From the NCBI RefSeq assembly GCF_056746865.1, contig NZ_CM163382.1: a stretch of DNA of 64,000 nucleotides, one strand, 5' to 3'. Positions within the stretch are counted from its first letter, which is position 1; each line of letters starts with the position of its first letter. Below are positions 49,046-52,351 of this stretch, in pieces. The notes under the pieces are model-generated. The model ran no database searches and was not told the origin of the DNA. It was given only the letters and a program-made list of their open reading frames with translations. The position numbers and the translations under genes were made by a program.

Positions 49046-49879
49046 TTAACGCATATTCAGTTTATTGGCGTGATAGGCAATATGCTCGCCAATAAAACTG
49101 GAGACAAAATAATAGCTGTGATCATAACCCTCGTGATAACGGATTAACGTCTTGATATTCATCTCCTGGCAGATCTTTTCAAGATTTGGAGTCCGCAGCT
49201 GTTCTGCGTAAAAATCATCACTCAACCCCTGATCAACCATGATTTCCGCAACGCGTTGACCTTGTGAAATAAGGCTCACCGGGTCGTAATCCAACCAGGC
49301 TTCTTTATTTTCACCAAGATATGCGGTAAAGGCTTGCTGTCCCCACGGTACTTGCGATGGGGAGACAATGGGCGAAAACGCTGAGACGCTGACATATTCA
49401 TCTGGATTACGTAACGCCAGCACCAGTGCGCCCAGCCCGCCCATAGAATGACCTGAGATAGACTTTCTGGCCGTTGCCGGAAAATGTTGCATCACTAAAT
49501 CCGGCAGCTCGTTGCGGATATAGTCATACATTTTGTAATGTTCATTCCACGGCGCTTGCGTTGCGTTCAGGTAAAACCCGGCACCTTGCCCGAGATCGTA
49601 ACGGTCAGCATCTGCGACATGACTGCCTCGCGGACTGGTGTCCGGCGCAACAACAATAATGTTGTGCTCAGCCGCGTAACGTTGCATCCCCGATTTAGTA
49701 ATGAAATTCTGCTCGTTGCAAGTCAGCCCTGAAAGCCAGTACAACACCGGCAATTTTTCACTTGCGGCTTTTGGTGGGAGATAGACGCCGACATTCATTT
49801 CACATTTCAGTGATGGGGAATAATGCCGATACACATTTTGCCAGCCGCCAAAGCTGGCATGTTTTTCAATGAGTTCCAT
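49046..49879 (-). CDS. frmB: S-formylglutathione hydrolase
   Basis: ORF track 277 aa; esterase D family, GHSMGG. Confidence 0.95.
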   Translation of the reverse strand: MELIEKHASFGGWQNVYRHYSPSLKCEMNVGVYLPPKAASEKLPVLYWLSGLTCNEQNFITKSGMQRYAAEHNIIVVAPDTSPRGSHVADADRYDLGQGAGFYLNATQAPWNEHYKMYDYIRNELPDLVMQHFPATARKSISGHSMGGLGALVLALRNPDEYVSVSAFSPIVSPSQVPWGQQAFTAYLGENKEAWLDYDPVSLISQGQRVAEIMVDQGLSDDFYAEQLRTPNLEKICQEMNIKTLIRYHEGYDHSYYFVSSFIGEHIAYHANKLNMR

Positions 49880-49970: not shown

Positions 49971-51110
<1,140 letters not shown>

Positions 51111-51114
51111 TCAG

Positions 51115-51390
51115 CTATTTAAGATAGGCACGAACCAGTTCAATAGTGTCGTCAACGGATTGGCTGACTTCGCGGCTGTAGCAGTCATTTCGGTCAAACG
51201 TTTCCCGGATATGGCTTTCAAGCACTTCTGCCATCAGCCCGTTAGCCGCGCCCCGAACGGCAGCGATCTGTTGGAGTATGGCACGGCATTCGGCATCACC
51301 CTCCAGCGACCGTTCCAGAGCATCAATCTGCCCCCGAATACGACGAACTCGAGTAAGGACCTTTTTCTTCTCTTCCGGAGTACTGGGCAT
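51115..51390 (-). CDS. frmR: formaldehyde-responsive repressor (RcnR/CsoR family)
   Basis: ORF track frame 51115..51411; start set to [21 protein letters not shown] (91 aa). Confidence 0.9.
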
Positions 51391-51416
51391 TTCGCACCTC
51401 ATCATCTGCACGCAAT

Positions 51417-51465
51417 ATACTATAGGGGGGTATGCTATATGTCAATGCATACCCCCCTATAGTAT
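51417..51465 (-). promoter_or_regulatory. candidate FrmR operator: perfect 19-bp inverted repeat with G6/C6 tracts, 11-bp spacer
   Basis: atactataggggggtatgc tatatgtcaat gcatacccccctatagtat, 27-75 bp upstream of frmR ATG. Confidence 0.75.
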
Positions 51466-51577
51466 ATAACACTGGAGAATAAAATTTATCCGGTGAATGT
51501 GGTCGGAAAACAAAGAGGAAAGGGGGTGGGGCTAATCGGCAGGGAAGGCCGCCCCGGATAGCGGGCGGCAGAAGCAA

Positions 51578-52351
51578 TCAGAATTTCCAGGTCAGATGGG
51601 CTGCAAGTTGCAGACCGTTATAATCATCGGTTGGGGTGTCGTACCACACTTTACCTGCCGTCAGCCCGAGATTAAGTTGCTCAGTCAGCGGTTGAATACG
51701 TTGCAAACTGACGCTCTTCATGCTGCCGTAGCGTGTTTCTGGCGTCCAGTCATAGGTGTAAGCACCTGTTCCGCGGCTTAGCCATAGTTGCGTATAACCA
51801 GTGCCGCGCGGGTCATTCAGACGCACGGAAATCATATTGCTGTAACTACCACCTGCATCGCTGGAGTCATAATGGGTATAGCGGTAGCTGGAGATCACCG
51901 GGCCAGTATAGAGTGATACGCCGCCTTGCCAGGCATCGACTTCGACATCATCGTAATATTTAGTGTAGCGATAACCGGTCGTGAAAAGCGTTTTTGGCAA
52001 CAGTGCCAGGTTAATATCCTGACGAAAATCCTGGCGGGCAAAGACCGGCGTATTATCCGCAAAGGCAATACCCATTCGGGTTGTCAGCCAGTTATTCCAT
52101 TTATACCAGACCGCACCCTGACCGCGAGTGGCATTGAAATGTTCAGTTTCATAATCACGACGCCCCTGGGAAAGATTAAAAAGCAGCGTTGCGTTTTCAA
52201 CTTTCGCCACCAGTTCAGCATACGCTAAATTACGGTTGCCATGATCGCCAGAATAATCGGTAAAATCGTAGCCCGCGGTAATGGAAGTTAACCCGGCATA
52301 AGCGGGCAATGTGCTAAAAATTGCTGCCGCTAATAACGTCCGTTTTATCAT
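51578..52351 (-). CDS. yaiO: outer membrane beta-barrel protein
   Basis: ORF track 257 aa; signal peptide; C-terminal aromatic residue (WKF). Confidence 0.9.
   Translation of the reverse strand: MIKRTLLAAAIFSTLPAYAGLTSITAGYDFTDYSGDHGNRNLAYAELVAKVENATLLFNLSQGRRDYETEHFNATRGQGAVWYKWNNWLTTRMGIAFADNTPVFARQDFRQDINLALLPKTLFTTGYRYTKYYDDVEVDAWQGGVSLYTGPVISSYRYTHYDSSDAGGSYSNMISVRLNDPRGTGYTQLWLSRGTGAYTYDWTPETRYGSMKSVSLQRIQPLTEQLNLGLTAGKVWYDTPTDDYNGLQLAAHLTWKF

Follow-up and report, generated by a model that had tools for sequence, protein, structure and literature searches.

The inverted repeat located upstream of frmR in the window (the window being the whole 64-kb stretch of DNA that was analyzed) is the FrmR operator pair already published for the E. 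coli frmRAB promoter and is, as such, a known feature. We consider it highly probable that the repeat serves as a double operator of the sigma-70 promoter of frmRAB, where FrmR represses transcription and formaldehyde releases it. For E. coli Pfrm, Denby et al. (2016, Sci Rep 6:38879) described a large inverted repeat centred at -29 that holds tandem type I FrmR sites (PMC5146963). The element in the window is the same one, with two ATAC-N9-GTAT sites and their G/C tracts, and nothing substantive differs between the two descriptions: we count 32 bp between the site centres, versus 31 bp in PMC5146963, and the perfect arms are 21 nt long in this strain, versus 19 nt of uninterrupted pairing in K-12. 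The proposal of the earlier note on this DNA, that the repeat is bound by a repressor of the FrmR family, is thus supported by the FrmR gene lying downstream, by sites close to the consensus and by the published description of the same element.

Structure and statistics of the inverted repeat

The 19-mer ATACTATAGGGGGGTATGC occupies 51417-51435 and is followed, after a gap of 11 nt, by its exact reverse complement at 51447-51465. The perfect 19-bp pairing that had been described therefore stands, but the arms are actually 21 nt in length, as complementarity continues outward for another 2 nt on either side. The distance of the 19-mers from frmR was also given correctly, at 27-75 bp upstream of the start codon (counted from the ATG listed in Table 1), as were the G6 tract at 51425-51430 and the C6 tract at 51452-51457 on the plus strand. 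The repeat finder reported arms with 100% complementarity and a spacer of 11 nt; this spacer reads TATATGTCAAT on the plus strand and is asymmetric. On the sense strand of frmR, the layout is ...TGTT-ATATACTATAGGGGGGTATGC-ATTGACATATA-GCATACCCCCCTATAGTATAT-TGCGTGCAGATGATGAGGTGCGAA-ATG. The coordinates of the repeat, of the promoter elements and of the neighboring genes are collected in Table 1.

Table 1 Features of the frmR upstream region and its surroundings, in window coordinates.
Feature	Position	Strand	Remarks
Whole palindromic element, dual FrmR operator of the frmRAB promoter	51415..51467	.	Two 21-nt arms and an 11-nt asymmetric spacer (53 bp)
frmR-proximal arm	51415..51435	-	ATATACTATAGGGGGGTATGC on the plus strand, GCATACCCCCCTATAGTATAT on the frmR sense strand
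frmR-distal arm	51447..51467	-	GCATACCCCCCTATAGTATAT on the plus strand, ATATACTATAGGGGGGTATGC on the sense strand
Proximal 17-bp type I FrmR site, ATACC-CCCCTAT-AGTAT	51417..51433	-	9/10 half-site positions; extends over the -35/-10 spacer and the -10
Distal 17-bp type I FrmR site, ATACT-ATAGGGG-GGTAT	51449..51465	-	9/10 half-site positions; mirrors the proximal site; located upstream of the -35, at a distance of 3 bp
Predicted -35 hexamer, TTGACA	51440..51445	-	Inside the 11-nt spacer between the arms; promoter scan
Predicted -10 hexamer, TAGTAT	51417..51422	-	Inside the proximal arm and proximal site; promoter scan
Shine-Dalgarno-like GAGGTG	51395..51400	-	4 nt before the frmR ATG; seen in the sequence
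frmR	51115..51390	-	276-nt CDS, 91 aa, with Pro2, Cys35 and His60; start codon 51390-51388; matches the RefSeq annotation of identical sequence
Second operon ORF, putative frmA (S-(hydroxymethyl)glutathione dehydrogenase)	49971..51080	-	369 aa; named from its position after frmR and the published frmRAB operon
Third operon ORF, putative frmB (S-formylglutathione hydrolase)	49046..49879	-	277 aa; named from its position and the literature
yaiO	51578-52351	-	Upstream of frmR; named from RefSeq annotation

Within the 64-kb window, this is the sole perfect inverted repeat with arms of at least 12 nt and a spacer of up to 40 nt, and hence the longest there. When the whole window was shuffled 30 times with dinucleotides preserved, the longest arm measured 9-14 nt, with a mean of 10.5. 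As the repeat is the only one of its size in the window and shuffled arms do not exceed 14 nt, a chance origin is excluded. When folded as single-stranded DNA, the repeat reaches -21.5 kcal/mol, compared with -6.9 ± 2.0 kcal/mol in shuffles (z = -7.4). A second G+C-rich inverted repeat, GCCGCCC...GGGCGGC, is seen at 51549-51571, just past the yaiO stop codon; because it is not accompanied by a T-run, the terminator scan made no call there.

Judged from its sequence, the gene downstream of the repeat is frmR. The product matches the NCBIfam equivalog NF008464 with 189 bits (cut-off of 133), and the best sequence match in the PDB is chain 5lbm_A, entitled 'Transcriptional repressor FrmR'. Both names, frmR and yaiO, come from the RefSeq annotation of E. 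coli sequence that is identical or nearly so. ORF calling extends the frmR frame to 51411, from a GTG start.

The promoter and the two FrmR sites

A scan of 51300-51700 returned a single sigma-70-like match, TTGACA-N17-TAGTAT, which lies on the minus strand and agrees at 10 of 12 positions. From the position of the assigned -10 hexamer, transcription of frmRAB is predicted to start near 51410, giving a leader of ~20 nt that includes the GAGGTG. The +1 position differs according to source, as the -10 assignment places it at ~51410, while the 'centred at -29' of Denby et al. implies ~51412. No divergent promoter running from the distal-arm TATAGTAT on the other strand was found in the window by the promoter scan.

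Each arm contains, together with its G6/C6 tract, a 17-bp palindrome ATAC-N9-GTAT, which corresponds to ATACT-N7-AGTAT with one mismatch. The cross-species consensus described below has the 17-bp core ATACTCCCCTATAGTAT, from which the proximal site departs at one base. The outer half-sites are perfect (ATATACT / AGTATAT), whereas the inner ones, located beside the -35, are degenerate (GGTATGC / GCATACC) because the G6/C6 tract extends into them. The centres of the two sites, at 51425 and 51457, are 32 bp apart. When ATACT-N7-AGTAT was searched for with up to one mismatch, two matches were obtained in the 64-kb window, both in the arms of the repeat, with no further FrmR sites at this threshold. 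The chance expectation for this pattern with one mismatch is 0.61 per window and 16 of 100 shuffles gave at least two matches; the pattern is thus loose, and the match count alone is weak evidence.

A type I operator is defined by a G/C tract of 3-8 bp in its core (PMC5146963). The two sites contain such tracts (G6 and C6), carry the AT-rich TACT/AGTA half-sites of CsoR/RcnR (DUF156) operators at a 7-bp spacing and overlap the core promoter of the operon that encodes the cognate DUF156 repressor. The resemblance to TACT-G6-N-AGTA that had been noted earlier holds for the half-sites and their 7-bp spacing, but not for a G tract centred between symmetric AT-rich arms. Instead, the G6 tract and the dyad do not coincide in either site, and the tract enters one half-site, turning AGTAT into GGTAT. 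A register centred on the G6 tract and flanked by 8-bp AT-rich arms, as implied by the earlier note and by the description of the Salmonella site, matches at 6/8 positions in the proximal arm and at 4/8 in the distal arm. ATACT-N7-AGTAT fits better, and the centred register is also the poorer of the two on the cross-species data.

Comparison with characterized systems

Much of the biochemistry of this operator is available from previous work. E. coli FrmR binds Pfrm DNA with a Kd of ~220 nM, compared with ~3600 nM for an unrelated control promoter, and is dissociated from the Pfrm fragment by formaldehyde; in vitro transcription is inhibited in an FrmR-dependent manner and the inhibition is relieved by formaldehyde, with a Pro2-Cys35 methylene bridge acting as the allosteric trigger (PMC5146963). 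In a biosensor study from 2024, a constitutive promoter that had received ATAC-N9-GTAT upstream of its -35 and in its spacer was repressed in an FrmR-dependent manner (PMC11127321). The literature surveyed yielded neither a site-resolved footprint nor binding data from point mutants for the E. coli FrmR sites. Sort-seq of Pfrm was reportedly performed by Rohlhill et al. in 2017, and critical repressor-binding positions are said, in passages of reviews citing that work, to have been identified. The part of a 2024 metal-sensor review consulted here gives no structure of a CsoR-family protein in complex with DNA.

FrmR is paralogous to RcnR (the RcnR model matches with 68 bits), and RcnR operators, namely TACT-G6-N-AGTA in E. 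coli and TACT-C7-AGTA, present twice in the Salmonella rcnRAPro probe, have the same half-sites, 7-bp spacing and G/C tract in the core. The rcnR-rcnA intergenic region likewise contains two sites per promoter. The two systems differ in the distance between site centres, which is 19 bp in rcnR-A and 32 bp at frmR, in the core, which is C4-TAT between ATACT/AGTAT half-sites for FrmR but an unbroken G/C run for RcnR, and in the effector, which is formaldehyde for FrmR and Ni/Co for RcnR. The repeat is not an RcnR operator proper, as its sites read TACT-ATAGGGG-GGTA and are found beside frmR, rather than showing G6 directly after TACT beside rcnR-rcnA.

Salmonella offers a second reference for FrmR. 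According to the mutant probe sequence, Salmonella frmRAPro shares a C6 tract and the TATAGTATAT that follows it with the E. coli proximal arm. FrmR no longer binds the Salmonella site when one of its AT-rich flanks is mutated (Osman et al., 2016; PMC5016687), and two Salmonella FrmR tetramers bind a 33-bp probe although just one C6-tract site is described for it (Osman et al., 2015, 2016; PMC4528141, PMC5016687). It should be considered that Salmonella FrmR is distant from E. coli FrmR, with 90 bits for 5lcy versus 186 bits for 5lbm.

Conservation across frmR loci

To describe conservation, we used 80 loci obtained by a FrmR protein scan with one genome per species. These loci range from Escherichia to Brucella, Lysobacter and Variovorax, with protein identities of 52-100%; the Salmonella locus lies outside this set. 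A motif was counted when ATACT-N7-AGTAT was matched at 9 or more of the 10 half-site positions between -150 and +6 of the frmR start. By this count, the motif is present upstream of frmR in 75 of the 80 loci, spanning alpha-, beta- and gamma-proteobacteria, so that conservation upstream of orthologous regulators can be added to the type I operator features listed above. The 12.5 kb of upstream sequence contain 94 sites, as compared with 6 in the other 197 kb of the same loci, which corresponds to a ~250-fold enrichment. Among the exceptions, three loci have versions with a 6-bp spacing (L066, L073, L077) and one has an 8/10 site (L030); upstream of frmR in L068, no site was seen. Fifty distinct promoter-proximal sites give the consensus cATACT-CCCC-TAT-AGTATAT.

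Two sites are found in 19 loci, with TTGAY between them in 15. In Escherichia, Edwardsiella, Enterobacter, Pantoea, Providencia, Aeromonas, Serratia, Morganella and Erwinia, the sites flank TTGAC(A/G/T), with centres 32-35 bp apart. The 7-bp cores, which are not palindromic, are mirror images of one another in 13 of the 19 two-site loci (5-7 of 7 positions): they are exact reverse complements in all five loci of the Escherichia lineage and in L008, L010, L015 and L018, and agree at 5-6 of 7 positions in four others. Both arms have changed together between lineages, reading ATAGGGG/CCCCTAT in Escherichia versus ATAGTGG/CCACTAT in several others. In Erwinia endophytica, the cores are in direct orientation, and in Deefgea they are unrelated, so that mirror symmetry is common but not universal.

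Several loci deserve separate mention. In Escherichia albertii, the proximal site is the perfect consensus ATACTCCCCTATAGTAT and the inner arm ends differ, such that the long repeat is imperfect even though the sites are, if anything, better. In Lysobacter and its relatives (six loci), ATACT-CCCCCCC-ACTAT at ~1185-1203 of the locus overlaps the first two bases of the aligned frmR ATG, which implies a leaderless mRNA or a true start codon at another position. Near-identical frmR genes and upstream regions are shared by a Citrobacter MAG, Klebsiella grimontii and the marine Maribrevibacterium harenarium, and likewise by an Edwardsiella anguillarum plasmid, Enterobacter sp. and Morganella psychrotolerans (L008, L010 and L018). 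Such likeness across unrelated hosts suggests that an frmR cassette moves horizontally or that some of the assemblies are contaminated.

Variation within E. coli

At least 5409 of 5426 complete genomes contain the 73-bp stretch surrounding the element, and 3554 of 5135 matching E. coli records have the exact 53 bp. K-12 differs from the window by one base in the 53 bp; in K-12 J53, the differing base sits where the proximal arm meets the spacer. With one exception, the sampled variants alter the innermost two arm bases, which lie outside the 17-bp sites. These inner-arm alleles include GAATAC in place of GCATAC in K-12 and TATGT, TATGG or TCATAC in others, while strain 06-00048 has a changed distal G tract in addition to an inner base. 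As the variants concentrate outside the 17-bp sites, perfection of the arms beyond the sites is not strongly constrained. The element occupies a median of one place per genome, with a maximum of 2 (5134 genomes), and does not show the many copies of a repetitive or mobile element, such as a REP, a MITE or an IS end.

In some E. coli strains, fbpC (ferric ABC transporter ATPase) replaces yaiO upstream of frmR (two loci). The repeat stays with frmR in these strains, and similarity breaks ~20-30 bp upstream of the repeat, at ~51483-51494 of the window. About 1,130 of 5,416 records match just the frmR-proximal part of the 251-bp query.

E. coli FJ_Ec_21 (NZ_CP143627.1; locus 151-223, corresponding to window 51415-51467) carries an exact inversion of the inter-arm segment relative to the K-12-type allele. 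The inverted length is 15-53 bp, as breakpoints within the arms are indistinguishable. In this strain, TTGACA is on the other strand and the best promoter match, TTGACA-N17-TAGTAT (10/12), faces away from frmR. The inverted allele has one full-length exact match among the 5,426 complete genomes, and a second record falls in the band of at least 99% identity.

Discussion

The present analysis shows the overlap of the element with the predicted promoter, its anatomy and the conservation of its sites, and the following scheme is proposed for their operation. Without formaldehyde, FrmR tetramers would occupy both sites, bracketing the -35 and covering the -10 together with the spacer between the two hexamers, and the bound FrmR would exclude RNA polymerase from the promoter. 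With polymerase kept off, frmR would regulate itself and frmA and frmB would stay off. Formaldehyde would then cross-link Pro2 to Cys35 between subunits, the cross-link would reshape the DNA-binding face such that FrmR leaves the DNA, and frmRAB would be transcribed. From this scheme, it is the contacted bases, the number of tetramers and polymerase occlusion as the mode of repression that we infer. Binding of one tetramer to each site of the E. coli double site should be taken as an assumption, since Salmonella FrmR places two tetramers on a 33-bp probe described as containing a single site.

The way in which the two sites work together can be read differently. The earlier note took the perfect symmetry to suggest two repressor tetramers or a looped complex, and both options do appear in Denby et al. 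(2016), where a two-tetramer model is given and a bridging tetramer is regarded as possible. There, the spacing of 31 bp at Pfrm, versus 19 bp at rcnR-A, was discussed in terms of one tetramer that might use both of its faces (PMC5146963). The 53-bp palindrome might accordingly be one unit bound by a two-fold symmetric FrmR complex, either as touching tetramers or as one tetramer that bridges the sites and bends the -35 region, with the mirror orientation being required. We regard this as possible but rather unlikely. It would account for cores that mirror each other and for the joint change of both arms between lineages (GGGG/CCCC versus GTGG/CCAC), and a distance of 32 bp between centres amounts to about three helical turns. 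However, the distance is 32, 33, 34 or 35 bp depending on the taxon, so that helical phase is not conserved and one rigid bridged geometry does not fit, while bridging 32 bp would in itself demand severe bending. The direct cores of Erwinia endophytica and the unrelated cores of Deefgea also argue against a required orientation, as does the fact that most frmR promoters carry a single site. Moreover, the mirror symmetry can be explained by an ancestral inverted duplication that was kept uniform by template switching, or by the constraint that the -10 imposes on the proximal site alone.

A more speculative extension, which we think improbable, is that the mirror orientation is under selection through a symmetric complex across the -35, and that, as a side effect, the perfect arms occasionally let the -35 spacer invert, redirecting the promoter, FJ_Ec_21 being the one natural isolate with such an inversion. 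This idea is based on the co-variation of the non-palindromic cores in both arms across enterobacterial lineages.

The remaining readings depart from the double operator altogether, and we give them very little credence. One is an RNA or DNA hairpin formed by the repeat, serving as a terminator or stabilizer of the yaiO transcript or as a structured leader of the frmR mRNA. The predicted fold is indeed very stable, and the repeat is located downstream of yaiO and on the same strand. Nonetheless, it is not the G+C-rich stem with a T run of an intrinsic terminator: the sequence following the stem is TGCGTGCAGATG, without a T-run, and no terminator-like site was found in 51300-51700. The predicted frmR start lies downstream of the repeat, which therefore falls outside the frmRAB mRNA, and in the fbpC strains the repeat accompanies frmR rather than yaiO. 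Other taxa keep the half-sites without the long stem, and many have one site. Searching Rfam at a permissive E-value gave just eukaryotic miRNA-precursor models with 20-27 bits, versus gathering scores of 73-139, which we take as chance.

Equally improbable is a phase-variable switch, in which the arms would serve as substrate for inversion of the spacer, flipping the -35. FJ_Ec_21 does carry the exact inversion with its promoter match facing away from frmR, but there is no associated invertase gene, and a rare template-switch mutation or an assembly error explains the allele equally. Given that this is the sole full-length exact match among 5,426 complete genomes, either of these is the simpler explanation.

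We thus return to the double FrmR operator. As the element, its regulator and the effector chemistry have already been published, the repeat carries little weight as a discovery, and Pfrm is already in use as a part of formaldehyde and methylglyoxal biosensors. What is added here is a cross-phylum consensus, ATACT-CCCC-TAT-AGTAT, that fixes the register of the site; a layout of two sites bracketing the -35 that is common to enterobacterial and related gamma-proteobacterial loci, with a looser form in Deefgea; and the finding that E. coli strains vary in how perfectly the arms pair outside the 17-bp sites, with the spacer inverted in one isolate. These additions could aid the rational design of FrmR-controlled promoters, and they frame the question of how DUF156 tetramers, which have no classical DNA-binding motif, sit on DNA.
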